Below are positions 4,609 to 53,682 of a DNA stretch of 64,000 bases, one piece after another. The stretch comes from an uncultured Candidatus Binatia bacterium (GTDB lineage: Bacteria; Desulfobacterota; Binatia; Bin18). Both the position numbers and the translations under genes were made by a program. Position 1 is the first letter of the stretch; each line of letters starts with the position of its first letter. The notes beneath the pieces are model-generated. The model was not told where the DNA came from. It searched no databases and saw only the letters and a program-made list of their open reading frames with translations. Where the stretch lies: the NCBI GenBank assembly GCA_965220195.1, contig CBDCPK010000005.1, positions 1,347,704 to 1,411,703 on the forward strand. The letters run 5' to 3'.

Positions 4609-5688
4609 ATGCCATCCCTGTTCCTGATCAGTGCCTTGACCAGCCTGTTGTCAGGCTGTTTGGCGACCTTCGGGCCGCAGGCCATCGAACGTACCCATCC
4701 GGCTTACAACGAAGCCATTATCGCGTCTATCAATGAGCAGATGCTTCAGAACCTGGTGCGGATGCGGTACCGGGATGTCACGTTTTTTCTGGAAATAGGC
4801 AGCGTCACCACGAGTTTGTCTCTGCAAGCCAGTGCCGGGGTTGACGCCGCGCTGAATTTCGGCACCCGGGACTCCCTGAGCCCCGGCGTCGGCCTTGGCT
4901 ATGCCGACAACCCGACCATCTCCTATACACCGTTACAGGGAGAAAACCTGCTCAAGAGCCTGCTCAGCCCCCTCCAACTCGAAGCCATTCTGGTGCTGAC
5001 CCAATCCGGGTGGAAGATCGACCGGGTGTTCGGCTTGTGCTTTGAAAGGATCAACAACCTGTACAATGCGCCCAACGCCTCCGGGCCAACCCCGCAGCAG
5101 GAGCCGGACTATGAAGCATTCAACCACCTGCTTGAATCGCTGTCCGTTTTACAAAAGCGACAGCTCATAGAAATCGGCACAACCCACCAGCACGACTCCC
5201 CCGGTATTACCGTGAGGCTGGTCGCGGATGATGTGCAACACCAACAGGAAATCGACCGCATCTATGCGCTGCTCCAACTCGACCGGGAGGTCAAGGACTT
5301 TGATCTGAACACGGATTTCCTTGAGGTGAACCAGACGCAGTGGGCGGTTCGCACCCGCTCGATCTCCGGCCTGCTGTATTATCTCTCTCAGAATGTGGAA
5401 ACACCCGAGCAGCATCAGGTCGACGGACTGGTGACTATCACCACGTCGAAAACCGGGGGGATATTCGACTGGACGCAGACGCCAGCCGGTCGTCGCTTCA
5501 AGATCAGAACCAAGGCCGAACGGCCCGATAACGCCTATATCGCGACCTACTACCGAGGCCATTGGTTTTATATTGAAGACACTGACCTGGAATCCAAATC
5601 GACCTTTATGCTGCTGCGCCAACTGTTTGACCTGCAAGCGGGACAGACCAGAGCCCAGGGACCGACCCTGACCCTGCCCGTCAGATGA
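4609..5688 (+). CDS. Lipoprotein of unknown function
   Basis: MPSLFLISALTSLLSGC has the lipobox L-S-G-C. The rest is a soluble 340-aa domain I do not recognise. It is in frame with the PIN remnant upstream. Confidence 0.55.
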   Translation: MPSLFLISALTSLLSGCLATFGPQAIERTHPAYNEAIIASINEQMLQNLVRMRYRDVTFFLEIGSVTTSLSLQASAGVDAALNFGTRDSLSPGVGLGYADNPTISYTPLQGENLLKSLLSPLQLEAILVLTQSGWKIDRVFGLCFERINNLYNAPNASGPTPQQEPDYEAFNHLLESLSVLQKRQLIEIGTTHQHDSPGITVRLVADDVQHQQEIDRIYALLQLDREVKDFDLNTDFLEVNQTQWAVRTRSISGLLYYLSQNVETPEQHQVDGLVTITTSKTGGIFDWTQTPAGRRFKIRTKAERPDNAYIATYYRGHWFYIEDTDLESKSTFMLLRQLFDLQAGQTRAQGPTLTLPVR

Positions 5689-30687: not shown

Positions 30688-30788
30688 GTGACAGGAATAT
30701 CATCGGTCGGGGCGGGAAGCGGACGTTTGCCCCAGGGTGCGTTACATCCGGCCTCATCCACACGTGAAGGATTTCCTTTCCCTTTTAT

Positions 30789-30810
30789 ATGATGGTATAC
30801 ATACCATCAT
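30789..30810. promoter_or_regulatory. 10-2-10 inverted repeat ATGATGGTAT-ac-ATACCATCAT, a putative operator
   Basis: The two arms are exact reverse complements around a 2-nt centre. The repeat abuts the ATG at 30811 and is probably bound by the HTH protein encoded two genes downstream. Confidence 0.45.
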
Positions 30811-31125
30811 ATGATTAAGCCGCGAAGAACGCGAGCAAAAGAAATATACCGCTTCAAGGAATCAGTAGAGTCAACAGCGCTCATCATTGAGGTTGCCATT
30901 TTCGAATTCTCCCCGACAAAAGAAAACCCAGATGGGACAGCCTATCGCCTCCAACTCTATGAGCGGGAAAGTGGAGAAACTGTTCTCCGCTATGACTTTG
31001 AACAAGGAAAGGGACACCACAGACACTTACGGGGAAACGAGTTCCCTTATGAATGGCGAGGCGTTGAGCAGCTTCTTTCCGACTTTCGTAGGGACGTTGA
31101 ATTAGTGAAGAAAGGGTACTTATGA
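30811..31125 (+). CDS. Small protein (104 aa), a putative toxin-like partner of the downstream HTH protein (TumE-like?)
   Basis: It is translationally coupled by an ATGA overlap to the next gene. Its sequence is not diagnostic. Confidence 0.45.
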   Translation: MIKPRRTRAKEIYRFKESVESTALIIEVAIFEFSPTKENPDGTAYRLQLYERESGETVLRYDFEQGKGHHRHLRGNEFPYEWRGVEQLLSDFRRDVELVKKGYL

Positions 31126-31511
31126 AGCTAAAACGGATGAAGATTGTCGTGCAGCCAGAGGACGATTTTTTCGATCAGGTTCGCGAGGCATTTTCTACTG
31201 TTGCCAAAGCGTCACGGAAAGGCGAAAAACTCCCACGGTCCACGCCGGTTCTCTCCTTTCCCAGCATTAAGGAGATGGCCCGGACTCTGACGCCGAAACG
31301 GCTTGAACTCCTGAGATTGATCCGGCGAAACGATCCTCAATCAGTGCGCCAATTGGCCACGTTGGCAGGTAGAAACATCAAGAACGTCAGTACGGACCTG
31401 AAAGTGTTGGAGAACCTGGGATTGGTCGAAGCGGAAGAACGGGAGTCACCTCGCCAGCGCAAACGTCCAGTGAGTCCCTTTGATCGGCTAGATATGGAGG
31501 TGTATTTGTAG
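31122..31511 (+). CDS. HTH DNA-binding protein (a putative antitoxin/regulator of the HVO_A0114-like/MarR-like kind)
   Basis: ...RLELLRLIRRNDPQSVRQLATLAGRNIKNVSTDLKVLENLGLVE is a winged-HTH. There is a 4-nt overlap with the upstream gene. Confidence 0.55.
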   Translation: MKLKRMKIVVQPEDDFFDQVREAFSTVAKASRKGEKLPRSTPVLSFPSIKEMARTLTPKRLELLRLIRRNDPQSVRQLATLAGRNIKNVSTDLKVLENLGLVEAEERESPRQRKRPVSPFDRLDMEVYL

Positions 31512-31614
31512 TCTGGCTTCTCCAGAGAGCTCTCTAAGTCGTCGCGCTATAGAGTCAATGACTGAGACTTATGGATAACTAGGGTTATAGAAGCGATAGA
31601 TTGAGAGGACGTCA

Positions 31615-31830
31615 ATGCGGAACGAATTTACCGCGCTGATTGAGCGGGAGAACGACTGGTATATTGCCTACTGTCCCGAAATCCCCGGAGCAAACGGTCA
31701 GGGCCGGACTCCAGCCGAAGCACGAGCAAGCGTAGCCGAGGCTATTGCGTTAATTCTTGAGGATCGCCGGGAGGATGCCCTCCGTGGGCTACCTGCCGAT
31801 GCCATCAGGGAAACGGTGATTGTCGAGTGA
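31615..31830 (+). CDS. HicB-family antitoxin (UPF0150), with no adjacent hicA
   Basis: It is 71 aa. ...ERENDWYIAYCPEIPGANGQGRTPAEARASVAEAIAL is the HicB N-domain. No HicA-sized ORF flanks it. Confidence 0.65.
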   Translation: MRNEFTALIERENDWYIAYCPEIPGANGQGRTPAEARASVAEAIALILEDRREDALRGLPADAIRETVIVE

Positions 31831-32686: not shown

Positions 32687-32855
32687 GGAGGGTCAAGCGA
32701 CCTCCTTCCTCTTCTCATATTCTCATAGAAGAAGTTAGGTTCATGGGGGGCGGACCGGATTTCTGTATCTTGAGGAATGAGTAAGCATCATTAAAAAAGA
32801 ATGTTTACAACGTCGTCGTTTCCCTGGATGAGTCTCAATACTTGATCGGGTAGGA

Positions 32856-35800
32856 GTGAGAAAGACGTTTATGCAATGGGATGGGGAAAAATTGCAACCT
32901 GGAATGCGGGTCCGATTAGTCAACAATTGGTCGCGGATCGGTGAACTGACGGAAGCGGAGCCTCGAATGAGAAATGGACGACGTCTGTTCCAGGTCCGTT
33001 TCCCCGATATCGTTGAGCGTGTTTATGAAGACCAACTACAACTACAACCCCAGGAGCGGATGAACCCGCTTGATTTACTTGAGAATGGGAAGTTAGGAAC
33101 GCCTAATGATCTGCGGAGAACTTTGACCCATGTCCGCCTTACGGGGCGATTAGCGGACATCATATACAGCATGGAAGCGACGAACACTGATTTCTATGCT
33201 TATCAATTTAAGCCCGTCCTTAAGCTCCTTCAGACTCCGACTAACGGCCTTCTGATAGCAGACGAGGTCGGACTCGGCAAAACTATTGAGGCTGGCTTGA
33301 TATGGACCGAGCTAAGAAGTCGCTTTAATTTGAACAGGCTCGTTGTGCTGTGCCCAGCAGCGTTGCGAGAGAAATGGAGGGATGAACTCGCTGGGAAAAT
33401 GGGCCTCTCTCCTGTCATCTGCGATACAAAGGAAACTCTAAGGAAGCTTAGGAGCAGTGAAGATCAAGCTAAAGGATTCGTGATTATCGCGAGTATGCAG
33501 GGGCTACGTCCACCCCGCCGCTGGAATGACACCGATGAAGCAGAATCGGACGCCGCCGAATTGGCACGATTTCTCAGGTCTATGGAAGACGAGGAACGGC
33601 TAGTGGACCTGCTTGTGATCGACGAAGCCCATCATATGCGTAACCCAGAAACTCAAACCAATCATCTTGGGCAGTTGATACGCAACGTTTCCGAATACCT
33701 CGTTTTGCTCACAGCTACACCAATTCACAATCACAATCACGACATCTTTTCCCTACTCCATCTTCTTGACCCTGACACATTTGAACGACAGGAGGATTGT
33801 ATTGAGATTCTGGATGCTAATAAGCCGTTGGTCCGTGCGCGAGACCTTGTACTCAAAGGAGAGGCTGGAGCACAAGAATTGATATCCCTTCTACGGGAGG
33901 CTGAGAGGAACCGTATCTTGGATGGCAACCGACAACTTGAAATTCTGTTGGAGGGAATCACCGACGAGAAGCTGCACTCCCTCCCGGAGCGGAGCCGGAT
34001 AGCCTATCGTCTTGAGACCATCAATCTGCTGGGACACGTCGTAACCCGTACTCGGAAGCGGGATATCCAGGAATGGCGTATTGTTCGCGACCCACAGCCC
34101 GAATTCGTCCCTATGACAAATGTGGAACAGGAGTTCTACAGGGCTGTGACGGATATTGTGATTGACTACTGTCTGGAACGTGATCTCAACGAAGCGTTCC
34201 TTCTTGTAATACCTCAACGTCAGATGGCGAGTTGTATGCCGGCTGCTCTGAATACATGGAAGAAACGGCGGGTAGAAATTACCGAAGATCAGTTTTTATG
34301 GGCGGATAGAGATGACCATCGCAAGAAACTCGGTCCACTGACGGAGAAACTGGTGGATTGTTCAGATAATATTGCCAGCTTTGATGAACTTGTTTCGAAT
34401 GACAGTAAATATAAGCGATTGAGCGAGGTCCTACGAGAATTTTTCACCTCTCATCCAAAAGCCAAAGTCATCGTCTTCTCTACGTTTCGAGGCACACTTG
34501 CGTACCTTCAAGGTCGCCTTGACGAGGAAGGTATTTCGAGCATCATCCTCCAGGGCGGAGGGGACAGAACGAAGGATGATATCATTCGTGAATTCAGAGC
34601 ACCTGACGGTCCTCCCGTACTTTTATCGTCCGAAGTAGGTAGCGAAGGCGTTGATCTCCAGTTCTCTTGGGTCGTGATTAACTACGATCTCCCGTGGAAT
34701 CCAATGCGTGTCGAACAGCGAATAGGGCGGATAGATCGTATCGGCCAGAAAGCGGACAAGGTTCTGATCTGGAATCTCTTTTATAACGAAACCGTAGACG
34801 CCAGAATCTATAAGCGTCTATACGACAAGCTGGATTTGTGCCGTAATGCACTCGGGGATTTTGAGGAAATTCTTGGTGAGGAAGTGAAGAAACTTACACA
34901 TGATCTCCTCACTAGTCATCTAACGTCCGAGGAACAGGAAGATCGAATCGCCCAAACGGCTCAGGCACTAGAGACAAAAAAACAGGAAGAAGAGCGCCTG
35001 GAATCGGAAGCGGTACATCTAACAGCATATGGCGACTATATTCTCCGGCAGGTTCAGGCGGCTAAGGAGACGAATCGCTGGATCAACGGAAATGATCTGT
35101 TCTCCTATGTTACTGACTTCATGAACATCCACTATCCTGGCTACCGTTTGTTGAAAACGGATGGAGAAAATTATGAATATCAACTTTCGCTGACCGCTCA
35201 GGCCAAATACGACTTGTCAGAGTTCGTCAGACAAAAACACATGACAGGTCAAACACGATTAACTCAAGTCACATCCACCCCCGTAGTATGTCGGTTTGAA
35301 AATCTTGTGCGGCCTGAAACCCGGACAAGGAAAGAAGTCCTCTCTCAATTCCACCCCTTGGTTCGTTTTATCAGTGAAAAGATTTCTGAAACCGCTGAAC
35401 AAATACGACCAGCGGTAGCCGTAAGGGTAGCAGTACGCGACTTTGACCCACCACTTGACGCTGGAATTTACATCCTGGCAGCTTCTCTCTGGTCTGTTCA
35501 GGGGCTTCGTGATGTTGAGAAGCTTGTCTATGAGGCTGCTCGTTTGGGTCGGCCTAATGAACTCCTCGGAGAGGTCCAAGCGGAACGTATGGCTAGTGTT
35601 TGCTCCTTCAAAGGAAATCAATGGCTAGAGGTGAGACACGAATGCGACCTGAATCTTACCTCTAAAATTGCCAATGACATCCTTGGTGAGCTTGAGAGCC
35701 GCTTCTTCCAATTTGCCAAGGAGGAAAAAGCTCAAAATGCGGACCGAGCAGACATTCAAGAACGGAACCTTAACAAGTACGTATCGAAACAACGTAAGGC

Positions 35801-35981
35801 TATTCAGCAGACAATAAACAAATTACGAGAGACTGGGCGAACGAAGCTGGTCCCTGCAAATGAAGGACGCTTGCGAGCGCTCGAGGAAAGGTATGAACGC
35901 CAGAAATTAATAATCAATTCGCATCGGAAAGTGACACATCGGAGCGAGGATATTTGTGTTGCCCTAGTGTTGATCGAATAG
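32856..35981 (+). CDS. SNF2-family helicase with a 70-aa N-terminal extension and a 350-aa C-terminal domain of unknown function
   Basis: Motif I is LLIADEVGLGKTIEAG, motif II is DEAHHMRN and motif III is LLTATPIHN. The helicase-C motifs are SEVGSEGVDLQ and EQRIGRIDRIGQ. The C-terminal third is coiled-coil rich and I do not recognise it. Confidence 0.85.
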   Translation: MRKTFMQWDGEKLQPGMRVRLVNNWSRIGELTEAEPRMRNGRRLFQVRFPDIVERVYEDQLQLQPQERMNPLDLLENGKLGTPNDLRRTLTHVRLTGRLADIIYSMEATNTDFYAYQFKPVLKLLQTPTNGLLIADEVGLGKTIEAGLIWTELRSRFNLNRLVVLCPAALREKWRDELAGKMGLSPVICDTKETLRKLRSSEDQAKGFVIIASMQGLRPPRRWNDTDEAESDAAELARFLRSMEDEERLVDLLVIDEAHHMRNPETQTNHLGQLIRNVSEYLVLLTATPIHNHNHDIFSLLHLLDPDTFERQEDCIEILDANKPLVRARDLVLKGEAGAQELISLLREAERNRILDGNRQLEILLEGITDEKLHSLPERSRIAYRLETINLLGHVVTRTRKRDIQEWRIVRDPQPEFVPMTNVEQEFYRAVTDIVIDYCLERDLNEAFLLVIPQRQMASCMPAALNTWKKRRVEITEDQFLWADRDDHRKKLGPLTEKLVDCSDNIASFDELVSNDSKYKRLSEVLREFFTSHPKAKVIVFSTFRGTLAYLQGRLDEEGISSIILQGGGDRTKDDIIREFRAPDGPPVLLSSEVGSEGVDLQFSWVVINYDLPWNPMRVEQRIGRIDRIGQKADKVLIWNLFYNETVDARIYKRLYDKLDLCRNALGDFEEILGEEVKKLTHDLLTSHLTSEEQEDRIAQTAQALETKKQEEERLESEAVHLTAYGDYILRQVQAAKETNRWINGNDLFSYVTDFMNIHYPGYRLLKTDGENYEYQLSLTAQAKYDLSEFVRQKHMTGQTRLTQVTSTPVVCRFENLVRPETRTRKEVLSQFHPLVRFISEKISETAEQIRPAVAVRVAVRDFDPPLDAGIYILAASLWSVQGLRDVEKLVYEAARLGRPNELLGEVQAERMASVCSFKGNQWLEVRHECDLNLTSKIANDILGELESRFFQFAKEEKAQNADRADIQERNLNKYVSKQRKAIQQTINKLRETGRTKLVPANEGRLRALEERYERQKLIINSHRKVTHRSEDICVALVLIE

Positions 35982-35984
35982 GAA

Positions 35985-37409
35985 ATGATTATGGCAAATA
36001 GTGATCAGTTTTTTAATGGAGTTCCAGAGAATGTTTCACAATTTGACGGAGGCGGAAGCTCCAGTAAGCTCGAAGTCGTTATAGGGCTCGATTTTGGAAC
36101 GTCCTCAACAAAGGCTGTCATCCATGTTTTCAATTTTCCCGGAGACCCTGCATTTGCGGTACCATTCGGCGAGTTCGCTCACGAGAGCTTGGAATACTTA
36201 TTGCCAACAAGGTTGTTTGTGAAGCCAGATGGGTACTGTTCGTTAAAGTGTGCTCCAGATACACCGACATCGCTTTTGACTGACATTAAGGTCGGTTTAA
36301 TGCAAACGCCAGATAAGAGCATCGAACCAGTTTCCAGTCCATCTTGTGATGCGTCAACCATAACTGTTGCGACAGCTTATCTAGCATTAGTCCTGCGGTA
36401 TGCTCGTTGCTGGTTCATTACAAATAAGAGAGACGCGTTTGAAGGCTTTTCGCTCAACTGGTCTTTCAATCTTGGGTTGCCCGCTGCAATCAAAGATCAG
36501 CCCCAATTTAAGGAAACATTTGGATTGGTTGGCGAAGCTGCCTGGCTTGTCTCTCAGCGCCCGGGTCCTATTACGATTCCCAGAACTAAGGAAGCGATCT
36601 CTGATATCGAAAATAGCGCGTCTCTATCAGAGGACGTGCCTTGCGATTTCGAGCTAATTCCAGAAGTAATTGCCGAAGTAGTCGGATACGCCCGTTCCCC
36701 GCTCCGCGACCCAGGACTCCATCTGCTCGTAGATATCGGAGCAAGCACCTTGGACGTGTGCGCATTCATATTGGGTGATAGCTATGGTGAAGATTATTTC
36801 TCCATACTGACTGCCGATGTTGCTTTGCTGGGTGCAAAACATCTGCATATGGAGAGAATCAAAGGATTGAAGAGAGTAGTGGAGGATCATGTGAAAAATC
36901 TGTTTGATCCAACCGATCCATTATGCGTGATAAAGGATGATATGAAATCGTATATGCCGCCTAGTGAAAAGCTCGACAATATCGAGAAAGCTTTTGCCAA
37001 TGAATGTGAGAGTCTTCTCAAAAAAACTTTTGCGGTTCTGAAAAAAGACAAAGACCCAGATTCAGCTCGTTGGTCCAATGATTTTCCCATATTTTTGTGT
37101 GGGGGAGCCAAAGAGATGTCAATATATGATGAGGTGATATCTGGCATTGAGCGATGGCTTCGTGAGTGGGGTCAATCACTCATTCACGCCCCAACAGGAG
37201 TAAGGCGAATTGACCTACCGAAACCAGAGGTTCTTGAGGCAACAATGGATGACAAGCTTTATCACCGGCTTGCCGTAGCATGGGGGCTAAGCCACCAGAG
37301 TTACAACATTGGCACATATAAACTACCAAGTGAGATAGAAAAATTTTCGCCTCTTCACCATTCAGTTCGGGATATTGATAAAGATTACGTCAGTAAGGAC
37401 ATGGTTTGA
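35985..37409 (+). CDS. Actin/Hsp70/sugar-kinase-superfamily ATPase (Hsp70-like nucleotide-binding domain) of unknown function
   Basis: The phosphate-1 motif is VVIGLDFGTSSTKAV and the adenosine motif is IFLCGGAKEMS. It starts 4 nt after the SNF2 stop. No substrate-binding domain is recognisable. Confidence 0.55.
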   Translation: MIMANSDQFFNGVPENVSQFDGGGSSSKLEVVIGLDFGTSSTKAVIHVFNFPGDPAFAVPFGEFAHESLEYLLPTRLFVKPDGYCSLKCAPDTPTSLLTDIKVGLMQTPDKSIEPVSSPSCDASTITVATAYLALVLRYARCWFITNKRDAFEGFSLNWSFNLGLPAAIKDQPQFKETFGLVGEAAWLVSQRPGPITIPRTKEAISDIENSASLSEDVPCDFELIPEVIAEVVGYARSPLRDPGLHLLVDIGASTLDVCAFILGDSYGEDYFSILTADVALLGAKHLHMERIKGLKRVVEDHVKNLFDPTDPLCVIKDDMKSYMPPSEKLDNIEKAFANECESLLKKTFAVLKKDKDPDSARWSNDFPIFLCGGAKEMSIYDEVISGIERWLREWGQSLIHAPTGVRRIDLPKPEVLEATMDDKLYHRLAVAWGLSHQSYNIGTYKLPSEIEKFSPLHHSVRDIDKDYVSKDMV

Positions 37410-37713
37410 GTGTGTTGGGAGAGACTCTCCCGGTACTCATCCTTCTAATGAAGGAAACCCACCCCGGCCTGCGGTCACCCCTCCAGGGACGTGTGATGCA
37501 TATTGTGGCGTAAGCCTCCCGGGACCGGTCCGGTGGCCCCCGCCTCGGGCCGCGCGCCTGCCCACTTCCTGGGAGAGCGGCCATCTTGGCCGCTTGCGGG
37601 CTGGAAGCCCGCACTCCTGGCCCCTGCACGACGCAGGGGCGCGAGGGGCCGCCGAGTAATGCAATACGCGGCACCCCTCCAGGGAGGCGGAGGGATGCCG
37701 GGAATGAGCCCGC

Positions 37714-48559: not shown

Positions 48560-48880
48560 TTATTCACTGTCAGATGAATCCGAGCTGTCCGCGCTAATCA
48601 AGATCAGCTTGCCGGTTTCCGGGTCCCGGTAGACTTGTCCTACCGGCTTCAGTCCACTACCACCCTCACGTATGCCTTCCGGAACATTGGGGAGTTCCCG
48701 GCCTTCTTCAATGATTTTGTCTCTGGAAAGTTCTTTGACAAGCTCAGGGCTTAAAGCAAAGAGGGCGGCAATGAGCCCGCAAGTAAAAACGAGCATGATA
48801 TCTATGAGGTTCGCAAGCGGTCCAAGCGGTTCATCAGCTTGCACGATAAAACGACTGGGCCGCCAGTTCCGCTGACTCAT
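48560..48880 (-). CDS. DUF2149-like small membrane protein
   Basis: It has a single TM segment (LIDIMLVFTCGLIAALFAL) and an acidic tail. It has an ATGA overlap with the exbB-like gene. The start is assigned to MSQRNW. Confidence 0.5.
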   Translation of the reverse strand: MSQRNWRPSRFIVQADEPLGPLANLIDIMLVFTCGLIAALFALSPELVKELSRDKIIEEGRELPNVPEGIREGGSGLKPVGQVYRDPETGKLILISADSSDSSDSE

Positions 48881-49341
48881 CTGCTGTTCCCTTCCAGGCC
48901 CATTGCTTCCAAGGCTTCCAGCTTGTCCATCGTTGTATCGTACCAACGACGGCGGAAACGCCCGAGTACAAAGCCAATTGCCCCGGCGAGCAGGCCAAGG
49001 ACAGTCGTGTCAAAGGCAATGGTTATCGCCTCGGTCAGAATAGTGAGATTGCCTTGTCCTAACGCGGCTAATCCCGGCCCCAGTGGAATAAGTGTTCCCA
49101 TCAGGCCGAACATGGGAGCAATGCGTGCAATCATATCAGCCCGTTCAATACGTTTGCGCCCCTGTGCCTCAACTTGGCTTTTTTCAAGCAGAGTCACATG
49201 TTTGAGCGCTCCGTACCGTTCGCCAAGAGCCGTGCCGATTTCAAAGACTGCCATCGCCACCAGCAAGATTAACACGGTCGCCACCGGATAGAGTAACAGC
49301 GCGACAAGATCATGCATCAGGGGCAGAATGATATTTCCCAC
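48877..49341 (-). CDS. MotA/TolQ/ExbB-family proton-channel protein
   Basis: It has 3 TM segments and the conserved ...MFGLMGTLIPLGPGLAALG... segment. Confidence 0.75.
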   Translation of the reverse strand: MGNIILPLMHDLVALLLYPVATVLILLVAMAVFEIGTALGERYGALKHVTLLEKSQVEAQGRKRIERADMIARIAPMFGLMGTLIPLGPGLAALGQGNLTILTEAITIAFDTTVLGLLAGAIGFVLGRFRRRWYDTTMDKLEALEAMGLEGNSR

Positions 49342-49344
49342 GGT

Positions 49345-52300
49345 TTACGCTTCTTTCCTCACTCGACGGCCCCTCCATATCCCTGTCACTATCAATAAGA
49401 GGATAAGCAGGATAAGCCAATAATACTGAGAGGCCGTCTGTGAATGGACTTCTTGAGCAGCAGGCTGCGCCTTGTCCTCTTCCAGACTATCGATTTGCCC
49501 GCTGTCCTCAAGGTTTATTTCTGTAATGCGGGTTGGCGCTCGTTCCGTGTTCGCGTCATCCTCTGCAATGCGGGTGTCATCAAGCAGTTGTTGCAAGGCT
49601 TCTGCCATATCGGCCGCCAGTTTTGGCATGACCCAGGGAAAAACGGGATGATCCGGTGTCGTATGGCCGCTGCCCGGTAGTCCATGCGTCAATATTTTAT
49701 TCACAAAGGCTCTGGCCAAGTCTTCAAGCCGTTCGTCGCTCGCCTGCCAAAAACCTTTTTGCGCAGCGACCAGCATAATGGCCTCGATGTTGATTTTTAC
49801 ATGGATGTTTTCATGCTCCTCAAGAAAACGGTCAAGATCGATACCATAGCGATCCTGCAAATACACTGCGTCCACCTCATCCCACACACGGCTGGTGATA
49901 ATATCCGGGTTTGTGACCTGCCATCCCCATAGATACTCAATAAATTCGGACCCCATCGTCCGCGCTCCCGCATAGCCGTGCTCCATCAGCGGTTTCAACC
50001 ACTCGGGGTTCAAAAACCGGCCACGCAGTTCACCCAGAAGCGCGCTGGTGAGCGGTTGCAGGCTCGCATTTTCAGGGTCCGCATGATGAATGACCTTATT
50101 CTCAGGCGTTTTGCCGGTCAGCGTTTCAACCGCCAGGCTGAGACCACCCAGATAATCAAACGCGTCGTTATTATCCAGCAAGCCGTACAGATTGCTGGCC
50201 CGACCCAGATAGGTATTCTTGACGGAAGAGAGATGGCGCTTGAACACGGTATGCGCCGGCATCCCGTGTTGGGTGACGCCATAAGCGTGTCCCATACGAG
50301 CAATATAGACCGCACCAAGCTCCTCGCGTTCTTCCCACGCCCCGGAGCGTTCTGCCAGCCGGTTCACCCCCGCGCCGTATGTCCCGGGTGCGGCCCCAAA
50401 CAGGCGGAGCGCTGCCCTTTTCTCCGCCCGTTCGAGCGCTGTCCCAGAGTCTATTTCTTTTTGGGTATCCGCAATCCAGTGCGCGGCAACATCATTGACC
50501 TCAATCGGTTCCGCGCCACCTGTTGCCAGTGCTCCGAGCGGCGCCAGCGCCTGATCCAGCGCGGGAATCAGATCAGGATGGAGAGAGCGAATATGGTGAC
50601 TCGAACCATCCAGGACAAGCAACACCGCCTTATCAAGCAAGACCAGTTGTTGGCCGTATAAATCGCGGAACAGGCCTGAGGAGATGAAAACGGTGTCCAG
50701 GCGACGGCGCCTCTTGTGTGTCAGAGGCAGGCGTTCAATTCCGGTAACAATACCCCGGGTATTCCACACCGGCTTGATACCCAGTAAGTCCAGCCCGAAG
50801 GCAATCATGGCCCCTTCGTCCCGTACAGTATCAGAAGCCCATAAGATCACCGCTTCTCGCCCATCTTCTGTGGTGTCGTTATCCTCGACGGCCTTGACAG
50901 CCAATTCTTGTCCCATGGCATAGCCCAGCTGTGTCGGCAAAACGGAGCTATCGAGCGCATAAAAATTCCGTCCAGTCGGCAGGGCCTCAGGCGTGCGGAT
51001 CGGGTCGTTGCCTTTGCCTGGCTCCACAAACGCCCCATTCAGGGCATTGAGAAAGGCAGTGCGCTCCGCTTTCGGGGAGTTTTGCAGCGGAAGACGAAAG
51101 GCATTACTCTTGGCCTCATCACCGTCACTAATGGAAGCCAGCATGAGCTGAACCGCCTCAGCATCCCATTCCCTGCCGAAAATATGTAAGCCGCGCGGCA
51201 TGAAATCTTCCTGCAACTGAGTCAGGTAATGCCCCACCTCATGGACAAGAAACTCACCGTCAGCTTCCTCAAAGCTGATACCCCGTGCTTGTAATTCTTC
51301 ATCCATCGAAGCGCTCAGTTCCTTCTTCAGGTTCAGCGTAGCGATTAAGTCTCGTATGGCGGTTAAGGCACGGGCTTTTGCCGGGGCAGCACTATCTGGC
51401 CCGGAGGCTTCATAGGATTCAACGAGTTGCCTGAGACGCAAAAGGTCGTCATAGAGGGGAGTGACCCCGAGGGGCGGGGTGAGATGGTCCACCATGACTG
51501 CAAGGCCGCGACGTTTGGCCTGTATGCCTTCGCCGACGCCATCAACAATATACGGATAGATTCCGGGGATCGTCGAAGCAATTTGCAGTGGGTAATCGCT
51601 GGCACTGACCCCAACACCGTGCCGCGGTAAGAACTCATAGGTTGAATGGCGTCCGACATGCACGAGGGCATCGGCTTGAAACTCTTTCTGGAGCCACAGA
51701 TACAATGCCAGATACTGGTGGGGTGGCGGAAAGCTCATATTCGCGTGGAGCAATTCCTCGTTGAGCTCCCAACCGCGCGGGGGTTGCGGGCCGATGAAAA
51801 TATTTCCGAACTGAAGACCTGGAAGCAGGATATTCCCGGCGTGCACCATAATCTTGCCGGGTGCCGGGCCCCAGCCGCGCAAGCCTTCTATCCCCGTTTT
51901 TATCAAGGCATGTGTCAGAGCGTCTATTTCCGGAAAATCAGGATCACCCCCTATAGCCCGTTCATATTCTGCCTGTAATTGATGCAGAAGCTTCAGTGCG
52001 CGATCTTTTGCCGGGTGCCGGACTCCTTCAAGAACATGCTCAATATCGCCGATCACACGCTTCGCCAGCCTTTTCGCAGTGACGACTTCCCCTTCAGCCA
52101 ACATGCGTTTCAACTGGGCATTCAGATAGCCCAGCGGACCTTCAACCATTTCAGATTGCAGACTGGTGGGCAGAGCGCCTAGCCAATTCTCATATTTCGC
52201 TTTGGATATATTTGTGACCTTCGCAGCCATAGCGGCAATAGCTTGGCGGTCTTCCGGCAGGTTCGTAGCCTTTTCCTGGATAAGCCTGAGCAACGCTTCC

Positions 52301-53682
52301 GGGCTTTCGGGCAACTCACCAGTGCGATAGCCTGCACCTTTCAGCCAGGTGAGCATCTCATGCAGTGAGGCTGGGACATCCAGATTATCCGCCCCGATAT
52401 TATGTCGTCCCGGCGGATGGTTGTAATAGATAATGGCGACCTTCTTTTCGGCATTCTGTTTTTGCCGAAGCTGACGCCAAGCAGCTATCCGACCGATCGT
52501 CAGACTGATCTGATCGTCAATAGGCAGTGTTTGCGTAAGCCGGACTCCGGTCACAGGGTCCGTATCTTCAGGAGAGGCTGCGGCGACTACAAGGGGCTGT
52601 CCAATACCTTGCAACTCAGGCATGGCAATACGATAATGCACCGAATCCCAGGGCAGGCCGTCGTCCGAGTAGCGCCATTCCGCTTCCGTACGGTCAGTGA
52701 CACGAATGGCTTTCAGAACGGGTACCCCGATTTCTCCGATATGTCTGAGCGATGCCAGGCGGCCTTCACCGCCGCCAACGACGAAATCTTGCAAGGAGAT
52801 GATTCCCGCGACAGGAAGCTGCCGGTTCAAATCTGCTATTTTCTCGAGTGCGGCCGTGCTCGCTTCTCCCCAACGGGCAAAAAACGCGAGGCATTGCATA
52901 CCTTTTGTTTCGGCTTCGGTACACAGGCGGTTGACGGTATCAATGTCACCCGCCCGGTCACCAGTGTCATGATCGATGATAGCGATCCAGCCGTTGTCTG
53001 ATTGCGCTAAAACAGGGGCTTCGTCTGTAATAAATCTGCCACCCGAATAGACTCGAAGGCTGGGCCGCTCTACAAGAGCGACCGGCGTAATGGTCGCGTC
53101 TATTTCAGCCGCTAAATGTTCGAGAAAACCCAACATGTTCTCTCGTCCCCGGCCCTGCCAGTAGGCTTTGAGGGCTAACCATTTTTGTTGACCGGGATGC
53201 TGCTTTTGCGTGCGTTCAAGCCAGGCTTGTAAAGTTTCATTCTTGGCGAGGTTTTTGGTCAAAGCCAAGATTTGCTGGCCACTCATGCCTGCAAAAACTG
53301 GTGTCTTCTGGTTGCGGGAAAGTTCCACAAGCCGTTGAACCGAGCTGACGGCATAAAAGATCTTTGACGAGGCATGCGCCTCCACAAGCTTCGTAAAACG
53401 GGTGGCCTGGTCACCAAAAAACGCCGACGCTGAAATGACACTTGCCTTTTCAAGCTCATGCACAATCGCCCGATCACTCATCTGGCGAAGCTGTGACGGT
53501 GTCCTGAGAACAATTCTGTAGCCCGGATGCTTGTCAAGAAATGCGGCGGCACCGGATGCCAGAGCAGAGGCTGAGCGATCAGAGACAATACCAAAGATAC
53601 GTTTATCTGGGGTAAGAGCTGAAGTCGCAGCACCCTCAAATAATAGCGCCGCTATAAAAAGGCATCTTAGGAAACAGCTCAC
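49345..53682 (-). CDS. CobN-like chelatase with an N-terminal signal peptide (1445 aa)
   Basis: It shows CobN/Mg-chelatase-family similarity over more than 1200 aa. The N-terminal MSCFLRCLFIAALLFEGAATSA signal and a C-terminal TM anchor (YYWLILLILLLIVTGIW) are present. It uses a GTG start. Confidence 0.75.
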   Translation of the reverse strand: MSCFLRCLFIAALLFEGAATSALTPDKRIFGIVSDRSASALASGAAAFLDKHPGYRIVLRTPSQLRQMSDRAIVHELEKASVISASAFFGDQATRFTKLVEAHASSKIFYAVSSVQRLVELSRNQKTPVFAGMSGQQILALTKNLAKNETLQAWLERTQKQHPGQQKWLALKAYWQGRGRENMLGFLEHLAAEIDATITPVALVERPSLRVYSGGRFITDEAPVLAQSDNGWIAIIDHDTGDRAGDIDTVNRLCTEAETKGMQCLAFFARWGEASTAALEKIADLNRQLPVAGIISLQDFVVGGGEGRLASLRHIGEIGVPVLKAIRVTDRTEAEWRYSDDGLPWDSVHYRIAMPELQGIGQPLVVAAASPEDTDPVTGVRLTQTLPIDDQISLTIGRIAAWRQLRQKQNAEKKVAIIYYNHPPGRHNIGADNLDVPASLHEMLTWLKGAGYRTGELPESPEALLRLIQEKATNLPEDRQAIAAMAAKVTNISKAKYENWLGALPTSLQSEMVEGPLGYLNAQLKRMLAEGEVVTAKRLAKRVIGDIEHVLEGVRHPAKDRALKLLHQLQAEYERAIGGDPDFPEIDALTHALIKTGIEGLRGWGPAPGKIMVHAGNILLPGLQFGNIFIGPQPPRGWELNEELLHANMSFPPPHQYLALYLWLQKEFQADALVHVGRHSTYEFLPRHGVGVSASDYPLQIASTIPGIYPYIVDGVGEGIQAKRRGLAVMVDHLTPPLGVTPLYDDLLRLRQLVESYEASGPDSAAPAKARALTAIRDLIATLNLKKELSASMDEELQARGISFEEADGEFLVHEVGHYLTQLQEDFMPRGLHIFGREWDAEAVQLMLASISDGDEAKSNAFRLPLQNSPKAERTAFLNALNGAFVEPGKGNDPIRTPEALPTGRNFYALDSSVLPTQLGYAMGQELAVKAVEDNDTTEDGREAVILWASDTVRDEGAMIAFGLDLLGIKPVWNTRGIVTGIERLPLTHKRRRRLDTVFISSGLFRDLYGQQLVLLDKAVLLVLDGSSHHIRSLHPDLIPALDQALAPLGALATGGAEPIEVNDVAAHWIADTQKEIDSGTALERAEKRAALRLFGAAPGTYGAGVNRLAERSGAWEEREELGAVYIARMGHAYGVTQHGMPAHTVFKRHLSSVKNTYLGRASNLYGLLDNNDAFDYLGGLSLAVETLTGKTPENKVIHHADPENASLQPLTSALLGELRGRFLNPEWLKPLMEHGYAGARTMGSEFIEYLWGWQVTNPDIITSRVWDEVDAVYLQDRYGIDLDRFLEEHENIHVKINIEAIMLVAAQKGFWQASDERLEDLARAFVNKILTHGLPGSGHTTPDHPVFPWVMPKLAADMAEALQQLLDDTRIAEDDANTERAPTRITEINLEDSGQIDSLEEDKAQPAAQEVHSQTASQYYWLILLILLLIVTGIWRGRRVRKEA

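Follow-up and report, generated by a model that had tools for sequence, protein, structure and literature searches.

A two-gene cassette of a DrmD-like SNF2 motor and an Hsp70-type ATPase, a candidate defence module in an uncultured Binatia bacterium

Organization of the locus

The window, that is, the whole 64,000-nucleotide stretch of Candidatus Binatia DNA analysed here, harbours a 4.77-kb island of two co-oriented genes, encoding an SNF2-family helicase and then an Hsp70-type ATPase. Empty-site alignment and GC content delimit the inserted island, which consists of a leader, the two genes and a short tail, to 32687..37452 (without strand). Empty-site contigs (L054, L050, L051, L052 and L055) align to the window until 32686 and resume at 37453, and the proteins of their flanking genes are 78-100% identical to those of the window. 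At related empty sites, the position of the island is occupied by 62 nt of unrelated sequence, and in near-identical genomes the GDPD gene directly adjoins the luciferase-like gene. The genomes with empty sites include some whose flanking proteins are 97-100% identical. The borders of the insertion take in exactly two genes, and a search for direct repeats flanking the island found none.

The block had been described as AT-richer than its surroundings, and its GC content of 47.5% is indeed well below that of the 10-kb flanks (58.1% and 58.5%). Similarly, GC3 is 0.49 and 0.43 in the island compared with about 0.67. The genome-wide value of more than 60% GC given in the original prediction was slightly too high, as the window mean is 57.6%. 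The AT-rich leader 5' of the SNF2 gene (32687..32870, + strand) is part of the insertion and presumably holds the promoter; a sigma-70 consensus scan of these nucleotides found no site. Because near-identical genomes have the empty site, the pair is accessory rather than a core RapA gene. The cassette is horizontally acquired. The neighbours named earlier are present as a Uma2 gene, a TumE gene with a wHTH protein (HVO_A0114) and a weak HicB-like ORF; they do not, however, adjoin the island, from which a native GDPD gene separates them. Toxin-antitoxin genes are found near the pair within the window, and the surroundings are otherwise metabolic.

Both predicted reading frames were matched exactly, at 32856-35981 (+, 1041 aa from GTG) and 35985-37409 (+, 474 aa). 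The probable start of the SNF2 protein is nevertheless the ATG at 32871 (1036 aa), where homologues begin and which gives the same length as the cluster representative (1036 aa). Likewise, the likely true start of the ATPase is the ATG at 35991 (472 aa), in agreement with the public annotation of an identical protein. As read from the sequence, the gene junction (35979..35993, +) comprises the SNF2 stop codon TAG (35979-35981), an AGGAA ribosome-binding site overlapping it, and the alternative ATPase start codons at 35985 and 35991. The intergenic distance is therefore 3-9 nt and not the 4 nt first reported. Such spacing, together with a ribosome-binding site within the SNF2 stop region, is an operon arrangement. 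The dN/dS of the SNF2 gene is 0.14 (versus the metagenome locus L041) and that of the ATPase gene is 0.31. Judging from their sequences, both genes appear to be functional.

The SNF2-family protein

The first gene (32856..35981, +) encodes an SNF2-family helicase that is DrmD-like and has a RapA-type architecture according to Pfam, PADLOC and NCBIfam. Its predicted family membership is borne out by the Pfam domains SNF2-rel_dom (5.9e-24) and Helicase_C (8.1e-19), and the protein possesses both lobes and motifs I, II, III and VI of an SNF2 family ATPase. GLGKT (motif I or Walker A, 33270..33284, +), DEAHH (motif II, 33621..33635, +), TATP and QRIGRIDRIGQ (motif VI with the arginine fingers, 34716..34748, +) are nearly invariant among homologues in a 22-sequence alignment. 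By family, the motor is presumably a double-stranded-DNA translocase that does not separate strands.

The motor core is preceded by an N-terminal domain of about 110 aa (32871..33197, +), which is conserved in the subfamily, and SNF2 homologues align from residues 5-18 on. This region had been taken for an unrecognised extension of 70 aa. It is in fact longer, and both the DrmD and the DpdE profile extend over it, so that it cannot be called unrecognised; scanned alone against Pfam, it gave no match. The C-terminal 362 aa (34893..35978, +) form a long antiparallel coiled-coil stalk with an alpha/beta insert, and the strongly conserved motif SQFHPLVRF (35343-35369, +) is located in this part. 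The coiled-coil-rich domain that had been proposed is therefore present as the stalk, to which the alpha/beta insert has to be added, in a form resembling the C-terminal part of RapA. Compared with RapA structures, the 362 aa give a Foldseek E value of 5.6e-7 (probability 1.0), and among solved structures RapA is also the one most closely related to the motor core (6e-29).

Among profile models, the PADLOC DrmD model PDLC02623 matches residues 14-1019 of the protein at 4.8e-277. The NCBIfam DrmD equivalog NF038317 aligns with residues 53-1010 at 430.4 bits, against a cutoff of 610. Other models remain further below their cutoffs, namely the DpdE equivalog (190 bits versus 500), the RapA model NF003426 (153.6 bits versus 576) and the ZorD model (36.9 versus 1500). 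Ranked by score, the named motor relatives are the defence helicases DrmD, BrxHI/II, HmaA and DpdE, with RapA far lower. Given the low RapA score and the near-identical genomes lacking the pair, the protein is not a core-genome RapA. The SNF2 protein can nevertheless be placed. Computationally, it proves to be an SNF2 motor that resembles DrmD over its full length, is built like RapA and has its ATPase motifs intact. The pair as such lies outside any named system.

The Hsp70-type ATPase

The second gene (35985..37409, +) encodes an Hsp70-type (actin-fold) ATPase that consists of the nucleotide-binding domain only and belongs to an unnamed family of about 2,800 clusters at 50% identity. Structure confirms the predicted actin/Hsp70 fold, with the two lobes and the phosphate-1, phosphate-2 and adenosine motifs that define ASKHA proteins. 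The phosphate-1 motif GLDFGTSSTK (36084..36113, +) contains D36, which corresponds to Hsp70 D10 and is found in 250/250 relatives. In DIKVGLM (36282..36302, +), which we take to match Hsc70 'DAKRLIG' by motif, K102 corresponds to the catalytic lysine K71 of Hsp70 and is present in 255/255 relatives. Further downstream, IPEVIAEV (36657-36680, +) carries E227, equivalent to Hsp70 E175, and precedes the phosphate-2 motif VDIGASTLDV (36729..36758, +), whose D250 and T255 are the equivalents of D199 and T204 in Hsp70. Both E227 and D250 occur in 259/259 relatives and T255 in 258/259, so that the Hsp70-type catalytic residues are kept in at least 99% of the 259 relatives. The catalytic Asp, Lys, Glu, Asp and Thr of Hsp70/Hsp110 nucleotide-binding domains are hence all retained.

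In contrast to its Hsp70 relatives, the ATPase matches neither Pfam HSP70 nor any other library model at the sequence level, all NCBIfam models having been searched at E <= 0.1. With its 472-474 aa it has no substrate-binding domain and does not qualify as an Hsp70 chaperone. It also differs from these chaperones in having no DnaJ or GrpE partner gene, and neither a J-domain protein nor a nucleotide-exchange co-chaperone is a conserved neighbour in about 50 loci. The second protein is, by these computational comparisons, an Hsp70-type nucleotide-binding domain with conserved catalytic residues and no peptide-binding domain.

Two regions of the ATPase may be involved in recognition or docking. 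A hypervariable helical subdomain (aa 280-400; 36822..37184, +) is a candidate specificity surface on account of its identity and indels: identity to L041 per 40-aa block is 40-72% there and 93-97% elsewhere, and in some homologues the subdomain is partly deleted (alignment A1). The C-terminal tail SKDMV (37392..37406, +), which follows a disordered linker, is a candidate docking peptide judging from pLDDT (below 50 for residues 458-474) and conservation (K in 161/198, D/E in 191/197 and V in 141/143 relatives).

Linkage of the two genes across genomes

The pairing is not peculiar to this genome. Wherever flanking DNA was available, the ATPase gene neighbours a gene of this SNF2 subfamily, as the original prediction required. 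In 31/31 genome loci with upstream DNA, representing more than 10 phyla, a full-length SNF2 homologue lies directly upstream on the same strand, and the same adjacency is seen in the metagenome loci L036-L043 and L059-L062. The six plasmid records bearing the ATPase are the very six that bear a full-length SNF2 homologue, with adjacency in 6/6; gene order is reversed in one distant plasmid case. Look-ups starting from the SNF2 gene found the ATPase downstream in 3/3. Moreover, the pairwise distances of the two proteins correlate with r = 0.93, a value reached by 0/5000 Mantel permutations. These computational data establish that the two genes are strictly linked and co-evolve. When the flanking ORFs were clustered all against all, no third gene proved to be conserved across about 50 loci, and each Pfam family is confined to at most 4/108 neighbours of the pair.

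The GC content of the pair is below that of its flanks in 32/35 loci (p = 8.6e-8). The pair is carried on conjugative plasmids and elsewhere adjoins IS elements and a relaxase, and it is absent from phage and viral collections. Two diverged genomes share the pair at one and the same location, where it is under purifying selection. In several MAGs the copy is interrupted or split, which may reflect pseudogenes or assembly errors.

Defence context and relation to known systems

The contexts of the pair include several defence genes. One context has a WYL regulator, a ResIII-methylase system and a Gabija-like pair; plasmid pAA03 carries Hachiman, AbiE and restriction enzymes; and a conjugative element holds a set of methylase, helicase and GHKL ATPase. 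DarT/Macro (DarTG) and cas2 (CRISPR) are found in other contexts, and PADLOC matches are scattered among the immediate neighbours. On the other hand, the pair stands alone among metabolic genes in about one third of the annotated contexts, which counts against a defence reading. The same is true of the failure to find, in the two proteins, any nuclease, methylase, protease, TIR or membrane domain that could serve as an effector.

As originally stated, partners of DISARM, BREX, Zorya and Druantia are missing among the 61 other ORFs of the window. DrmA, DrmB and DrmC are found neither among these ORFs (Drm models, E <= 1e-6) nor in the Pfam annotation of neighbours; DrmM has no match among window ORFs either, and no DISARM core gene is conserved in about 50 related loci. 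PADLOC gave no match to PglZ, BrxC, PglX, ZorA, ZorB, DruA-E or the Dpd set among the 61 ORFs, and no DNA methyltransferase (DrmMI) was found in the window by PADLOC or in the ORFs at 29-42 kb by Pfam. The pair corresponds to no named system in PADLOC, NCBIfam, Pfam or PHROGs, and no publication describing it was found in the searchable literature. All the refuting conditions set by the original prediction were thus resolved in its favour.

The SNF2 protein nevertheless shares the full-length layout of DrmD from class 1 DISARM, with N-terminal domain, SNF2 core and C-terminal domain, although it scores below the NCBIfam equivalog cutoff. Like the DrmD relatives ArmA (ARMADA II), IetH (IetHAS), BrxHI/II, DpdE and HmaA, it behaves as a mobile, defence-associated module, and these relatives have varied partners. 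DrmD-like SNF2 modules are reused and essential in ARMADA II and IetHAS (PMC13463889, PMC12458937, PMC13069673). However, DrmA, DrmB, DrmC, DrmMI, PglZ/PglX, IetAS and Dpd genes, which belong to DISARM, BREX, IetHAS and Dpd, never accompany the SNF2 gene in the examined loci, and DrmD-type systems do not have the Hsp70-type ATPase that is its sole constant partner here. The module type is thus familiar from DISARM, ARMADA and IetHAS, and its pairing with an Hsp70-type ATPase would represent a new variant of SNF2-based defence modules.

Hsp70-like nucleotide-binding proteins also have precedents in predicted conflict systems (PMC11090510, PMC7159879). CnuD of the McrBC-type CoCoNuT systems and the Hsp70 domain-only proteins of GTPase-centred systems are stand-alone Hsp70-like domains, as is the ATPase here. 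CnuD, however, is described as catalytically degenerate, whereas the catalytic residues here are invariant, and the partner in those systems is McrB or a GTPase rather than an SNF2 motor. The same logic of an SNF2 motor with a chaperone-type ATPase on mobile DNA is seen in pairs of SNF2 and GHKL (Hsp90/sacsin/MORC-like) proteins. On Ensifer and Methanomethylovorans plasmids, SNF2 relatives alignable in the core only are followed immediately by proteins of 1034 and 1113 aa with sacsin/Hsp90-like domains. The partner fold there is GHKL instead of actin/Hsp70, the C-terminal part of the SNF2 protein differs, and the Ensifer locus additionally has a RecB-like nuclease.

Possible function of the pair

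On balance, the pair is probably a self-contained mobile two-gene operon that acts as a defence module against phages and plasmids without a nuclease or methylase of its own. The alternative that deserves most attention, though it is rather unlikely, is an accessory RapA-like remodeller serving as a stress-fitness module, in which the SNF2 protein would act on stalled RNA polymerase or other nucleoprotein complexes to recycle or dislodge them, with the ATPase as release or loading cofactor. RapA (HepA), the RNA-polymerase-associated protein, is the closest solved structure for the motor core and matches the C-terminal third as well, and it suggests a working mode of ATP-driven remodelling of protein-DNA complexes and not DNA cleavage. 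This architecture would be equally compatible with an RNA polymerase role unrelated to invaders. The pair also has neither an effector nor a self-marking enzyme, many of its loci lie amid metabolic genes, and such a role fits its conservation at a shared site in two diverged genomes, where purifying selection acts on it. RapA, however, is a core single gene, whereas the pair is an accessory two-gene cassette, present or absent among near-identical strains and found on plasmids and conjugative elements, with recurrent defence or toxin-antitoxin neighbours. Furthermore, DrmD-type defence models score far above the RapA equivalog, the GC content of the pair is systematically low relative to the host, and the fast evolution of the ATPase subdomain is more in keeping with an arms race than with a housekeeping role.

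A selfish addiction or maintenance module, either a toxin-antitoxin-like pair or an actin-like partition or stability device benefiting its element, is distinctly improbable. Occurrence on conjugative plasmids near par and mob genes, and IS elements flanking the pair at several loci, would agree with it. Most copies, however, are chromosomal two-gene cassettes that have no integrase, replicon or centromere-binding partner gene, and phage and viral collections contain no copy. The fold and catalytic lysine are of Hsp70 type and not of ParM or MreB type, and a partition role for a 1036-aa SNF2 motor is not known. Even the whole-length PADLOC DrmD match and the wide span of the NCBIfam DrmD profile leave it hardly credible that a DISARM-type system (or one of the ARMADA, BREX or Dpd kind) has left behind the SNF2 gene as an orphan or decayed remnant, with the ATPase next to it by chance. 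This reading is already contradicted by the missing partners, in the window as well as in about 50 related loci, by insertion borders holding exactly two genes and by the universal, co-evolving ATPase pairing; the sub-threshold NCBIfam DrmD score also stands against it.

Within the defence reading, a mechanism can be proposed. The SNF2 and ATPase proteins would form a complex, the ATPase probably docking via its tail or body onto the coiled-coil stalk of the motor. The Hsp70-like subunit may serve as an ATP-gated switch or sensor: it would detect an invader cue through its variable subdomain and would license or restrain the motor. The latter could track along invader DNA and strip or stall complexes engaged in replication or transcription, in a manner similar to the remodelling of RNA polymerase by RapA, or it may instead lay invader DNA open to host nucleases. 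It is unlikely that the scheme holds in every particular, namely that the roughly 2,800 clusters represent an unnamed, widespread immune module, working with neither nuclease nor methylase, whose ATPase docks on the stalk and gates the motor, and whose motor evicts the replication or transcription machinery of invaders.

A comparison with eukaryotes can be made by analogy only. The actin/Arp modules of INO80, SWR1 and SWI/SNF bind an HSA helix, which is N-terminal to the eukaryotic SNF2 motor, whereas the long helices here are C-terminal, and the ATPase resembles Hsp70 more than it does actin or Arps. If the proposed scheme is true, the pair would functionally parallel, in prokaryotes, the actin/Arp modules by which eukaryotic SNF2 chromatin remodellers are regulated.

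Gene pair and genomic surroundings

The SNF2 and ATPase genes lie on the plus strand in an island at 32687-37452, and both ORFs are found where the original prediction had placed them, at 32856-35981 (1041 aa counted from a GTG) and 35985-37409 (474 aa), respectively. Based on homologues and on the public annotation of identical proteins, the probable true starts are ATG 32871 for the SNF2 protein (1036 aa) and ATG 35991 for the ATPase (472 aa). An AGGAA ribosome-binding site is positioned over the SNF2 stop codon. The spacing of the two genes is thus 3-9 nt, and they almost certainly form a single operon. No sigma-70-like site was returned by a promoter scan of the leader. The island block has a GC content of 47.5% as compared to 58% in the 10 kb on each side, and GC3 is 0.49 and 0.43 for the pair genes as against approximately 0.67 elsewhere. 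The AT-richer block described earlier was thus confirmed, whereas a genome GC content above 60% was a slight overestimate, the whole window standing at 57.6%.

Upstream of the island are encoded a polysaccharide deacetylase, Uma2, TumE with a winged-helix protein (HVO_A0114), a weak HicB-like ORF, and a GDPD phosphodiesterase, while a luciferase-like monooxygenase, LeuD/LeuC, and a thioredoxin-TPR protein follow downstream. Between Uma2 and GDPD lies a hotspot of variable toxin-antitoxin content (window 30700-31830; 5190-5474 in the related locus L041; 11804-11875 in the empty-site contig L054). It carries TumE, the HVO_A0114 wHTH protein, and the HicB-like ORF in the window, a PhdYeFM antitoxin in L041, and only a HicB fragment in L054; the wHTH gene is kept in L050, another empty-site contig. 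The only other very large ORF of the window, with 1445 aa and a slightly low GC3 (49345-53682, minus strand), was identified as a CobN cobaltochelatase and is unrelated to the pair, as is the adjacent MotA/ExbB-family protein (48877-49341, minus strand).

A DrmD-like SNF2 motor

The SNF2-rel_dom and Helicase_C domains were detected by Pfam, and SNF2 motifs I, II, III, and VI are all present and nearly invariant across homologues, indicating computationally that the motor is intact; K142 is the lysine of GLGKT, and D256 and E257 open the DEAH motif. Among PADLOC models, the DrmD model PDLC02623 matched residues 14-1019 at 4.8e-277, followed by BrxHI/II, HmaA, a DrmA-labelled model, and DpdE. 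The NCBIfam DISARM_DrmD equivalog aligned over residues 53-1010 but, at 430 bits, fell short of the cutoff of 610, and DpdE (190 bits, cutoff 500) and RapA (153.6 bits, cutoff 576) also remained below theirs. No Pfam domain was found in the N-terminal ~110 aa or the C-terminal ~360 aa, and the protein has no recognisable effector domain. In the AlphaFold model (pLDDT 81), residues 680-1041 form a long antiparallel coiled coil with an alpha/beta insert, and for the motor core, too, the closest relative of solved structure is RapA. Taken together, the profile, motif, and structure results define a DrmD-like SNF2 ATPase of RapA-type architecture.

An ATPase with the Hsp70 fold

For the second protein, no match was obtained in Pfam, NCBIfam, PADLOC, or PHROGs, and PDB sequences searched by profile yielded insignificant matches only; its fold came to light solely through structure. 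Structural comparison scores were highest for Sse1 (Hsp110; 23.7), Ssz1 (22.1), Ssb1 (21.7), and BiP (20.6), followed by BeeR and MreB (about 20), ParM, PilM, and FtsA (about 17), and Arp4, Arp5, Arp8, and BAF53 (13-17). The protein is devoid of a substrate-binding domain. By motif, its residues D36, K102, E227, D250, and T255 correspond to D10, K71, E175, D199, and T204 of Hsc70. Conservation among relatives is practically complete for D36 (250/250), K102 (255/255), E227 (259/259), D250 (259/259), T255 (258/259), and the GG adenosine motif (255/255). Owing to this conservation of catalytic residues, the second protein is very probably an active ATPase with Hsp70 chemistry.

Two other regions of the ATPase stand out. 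The helical region at aa 280-400 is hypervariable, with 40-72% identity to the L041 protein as against 93-97% elsewhere, and carries indels in other homologues; the C-terminal tail, [S/G]-K-[D/E]-[M/Q]-V, which reads SKDMV in the window, is conserved and follows a disordered linker. Many homologues are 580-600 aa long (P0004, P0013, P0022, P0041; L044 9530-11299; L045 9389-11152) and begin with a conserved helix, MxGKKFGSLFxxIL, leading into a basic disordered linker of ~100 aa. This helix appears amphipathic and resembles a membrane-targeting or docking helix; the extension is missing from the window's ATPase. In a deltaproteobacterial MAG (L019 3415-6342), the SNF2 partner is a 975-aa protein with two tandem actin-fold units, and a second SNF2 gene (1284 aa) lies downstream.

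Insertion into an otherwise empty site

Metagenomes were scanned with the luciferase-like protein as query, and five contigs (L050, L051, L052, L054, and L055) were recovered in which GDPD adjoins the luciferase-like gene without the pair in between. The flanking proteins of L054 and L050 are 92-100% identical to those of the window. At nucleotide level, the empty site follows the window as far as the GDPD stop (32686), and the match resumes at 37453, so that 62 nt of the empty site correspond to 4,766 nt in the window. No direct repeats, att sites, or integrase were found flanking the island. This site is also occupied by the pair in L041, a more distant relative, with protein identities to the window of 95% for SNF2 and 81-86% for the ATPase. 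The dN/dS values between the two (0.14 for SNF2 and 0.31 for the ATPase) indicate that both genes are under purifying selection. Given the empty sites and the occupied L041, the pair is an accessory cassette that varies within the population.

Separate from the island, and just 3' of it, the window contains a GC-rich insertion of 182 nt (37490-37671) bounded by a perfect 14-nt direct repeat, CACCCCTCCAGGGA (37476-37489 and 37672-37685), the only repeat seen. The insertion is missing from both the empty site L054 and the occupied L041, where CACCCCTCCAGGGA is single-copy. Its predicted folding is very stable (-109.5 kcal/mol, z = -4.2) and no Rfam family was matched; a MITE-like element and a structured RNA are both conceivable.

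Distribution of the pair

When clusters are drawn at 50% identity, the large ATPase family has 2,829 representatives with E <= 1e-3 and 1,153 with E <= 1e-30, and all named examples are annotated "hypothetical protein". When a single genome per species was searched, 35 loci were obtained, from Alphaproteobacteria, Binatia, Latescibacterota, Planctomycetota, Acidobacteriota, Gemmatimonadota, Myxococcota, Bacteroidota, Ignavibacteriales, Bacillota, SAR116, and others. Whether ATPase homologues neighbour SNF2 helicases elsewhere had been left as a decisive question, and the answer is clear: in every one of the 31 loci for which upstream DNA is available, the ATPase gene is directly preceded by a full-length SNF2 homologue in the same orientation, and the metagenome loci show the same arrangement. 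The plasmid records that contain the ATPase and those that contain a full-length SNF2 match are the same six. Cultivable hosts of homologues include Aminobacter (plasmid pAA03) and Devosia rhodophyticola. Conversely, SNF2 homologues picked irrespective of the ATPase had it downstream in three of three cases. Pairwise distances of the two proteins are strongly correlated (r = 0.93; 0/5000 permutations as high). Moreover, the pair is lower in GC than its flanks in 32/35 loci, the mean difference being 4.8 points (p = 8.6e-8). Clustering of flanking ORFs gave no third conserved gene, the most frequent Pfam family accounting for at most 4 of 108 immediate neighbours, and no ATPase homologues were found in phage genomes or viral contigs. 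The survey thus shows computationally that the SNF2 and ATPase genes are an obligate, co-evolving pair that is accessory and mobile.

Some loci depart from this arrangement. A distant version on a Leptolyngbya plasmid (L046 7128-12586), beside cas2, has the order reversed, with a 744-aa actin-fold-domain protein preceding SNF2. In L062 (13955-18023, minus strand; followed by a 408-aa hypothetical protein) and L016 (197-3517, minus strand), a second, different SNF2 gene occurs less than 10 kb from the pair, and no ATPase-family partner was detectable for the second SNF2 genes of L016, L019, and L062. In a Terasakiella MAG (L001 6931-8554), the SNF2 gene is broken by a ~1.7-kb insert next to a DDE transposase, and in several other MAG copies (L004, L005, L014, and L025) one gene is split in two; such copies may be pseudogenes or assembly errors.

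Several pair loci are defence islands or mobile elements. Their contents include a WYL regulator, HIRAN and DUF2779 proteins, a ResIII-methylase system, and a Gabija-like AAA_15/UvrD pair; the conjugative plasmid pAA03 with RecB-like and AAA proteins, restriction enzymes, Hachiman, and AbiE; a transposase with DarT/Macro; a methylase, helicase, and GHKL ATPase set with IS elements and a TrwC relaxase; IS3 and IS110 elements; and a cyanobacterial plasmid with toxin-antitoxin genes and XerD. PADLOC matches among the 108 immediate neighbours include GajB, PDC-S68, PDC-M72A, DRT, and PD-T4-4. In other loci, including the window, the pair stands alone amid metabolic genes.

Relation to known systems and possible function

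DrmD-like SNF2 helicases are already known in other company. ArmA of ARMADA II is one such helicase and a reusable module (PMC13463889, PMC12458937), and IetH of IetHAS is another, in which Walker-A and DEAH mutants abolish protection (PMC13069673). On the partner side, CnuD is an Hsp70-like nucleotide-binding protein in CoCoNuTs, which are predicted conflict systems (PMC11090510), and Hsp70 domain-only proteins occur in predicted GTPase-centred conflict systems (PMC7159879). No SNF2 or DrmD partner of Hsp70 or actin fold is described in the freely accessible full-text literature searched. The pair is best classed with SNF2-based defence modules having exchangeable partners, the partner family itself being uncharacterised. 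Additionally, core-only SNF2 relatives on an Ensifer plasmid (L048 8773-15093) and a Methanomethylovorans plasmid (L049 11791-18275), which match only the motor core, each have a sacsin/Hsp90-like GHKL protein encoded directly downstream (1034 and 1113 aa, respectively), and in Ensifer a RecB-like nuclease comes next; an SNF2 motor paired with a chaperone-type ATPase thus appears to be a recurring design.

The pairing originally noticed is real and its interpretation stands: a defence or anti-mobile-element system is the reading to which we incline, with modest confidence. An orphan remnant of DISARM is essentially excluded, in spite of the DrmD-like motor, since none of the other 61 window ORFs is a DISARM component. 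Components of BREX, Zorya, and Druantia are equally absent from these ORFs, as originally stated, and none of the four systems is recurrent in related loci, which places the pair outside all of them. The main rival is an accessory RapA-like remodeller acting with a cofactor in transcription or stress fitness. It shares the RapA-type architecture and is rather unlikely; the core-genome RapA identity named earlier as an alternative is excluded by the accessory, within-population variable status of the pair. A selfish maintenance module of mobile elements is more improbable still.

For a defence system, a specific gating-and-eviction mechanism can be proposed, although with low confidence. The SNF2 protein and the ATPase would form a complex, with the conserved ATPase tail and the helical stalk of the motor as candidate interface. 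The ATPase may serve as an ATP-gated switch or sensor, its hypervariable helical subdomain providing the specificity surface. The motor would then run along invader DNA, displacing or stalling replication or transcription complexes, or passing the DNA to host nucleases. Computational searches of the cassette found neither a nuclease nor a methylase.

Significance

If the defence reading is true, the pair would be a compact two-gene addition to SNF2-based bacterial defences, with an Hsp70-type ATPase as a partner fold not previously linked to SNF2 motors in prokaryotes. Annotation tools of today would call the locus an orphan DrmD and overlook the system. A name and a testable role would also be given to a large orphan family of ~2,800 clusters at 50% identity that has no Pfam, NCBIfam, PADLOC, or PHROGs model. 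As the cassette lacks a nuclease and a methylase, it could show in what way foreign DNA is told apart and neutralised by nothing more than a DNA motor under the gating control of a second ATPase, a question relevant to what DrmD-like helicases do in DISARM, ARMADA, and IetHAS. Furthermore, with an actin-fold ATPase as the partner of its SNF2 motor, the cassette calls for comparison with the chromatin remodellers of eukaryotes.
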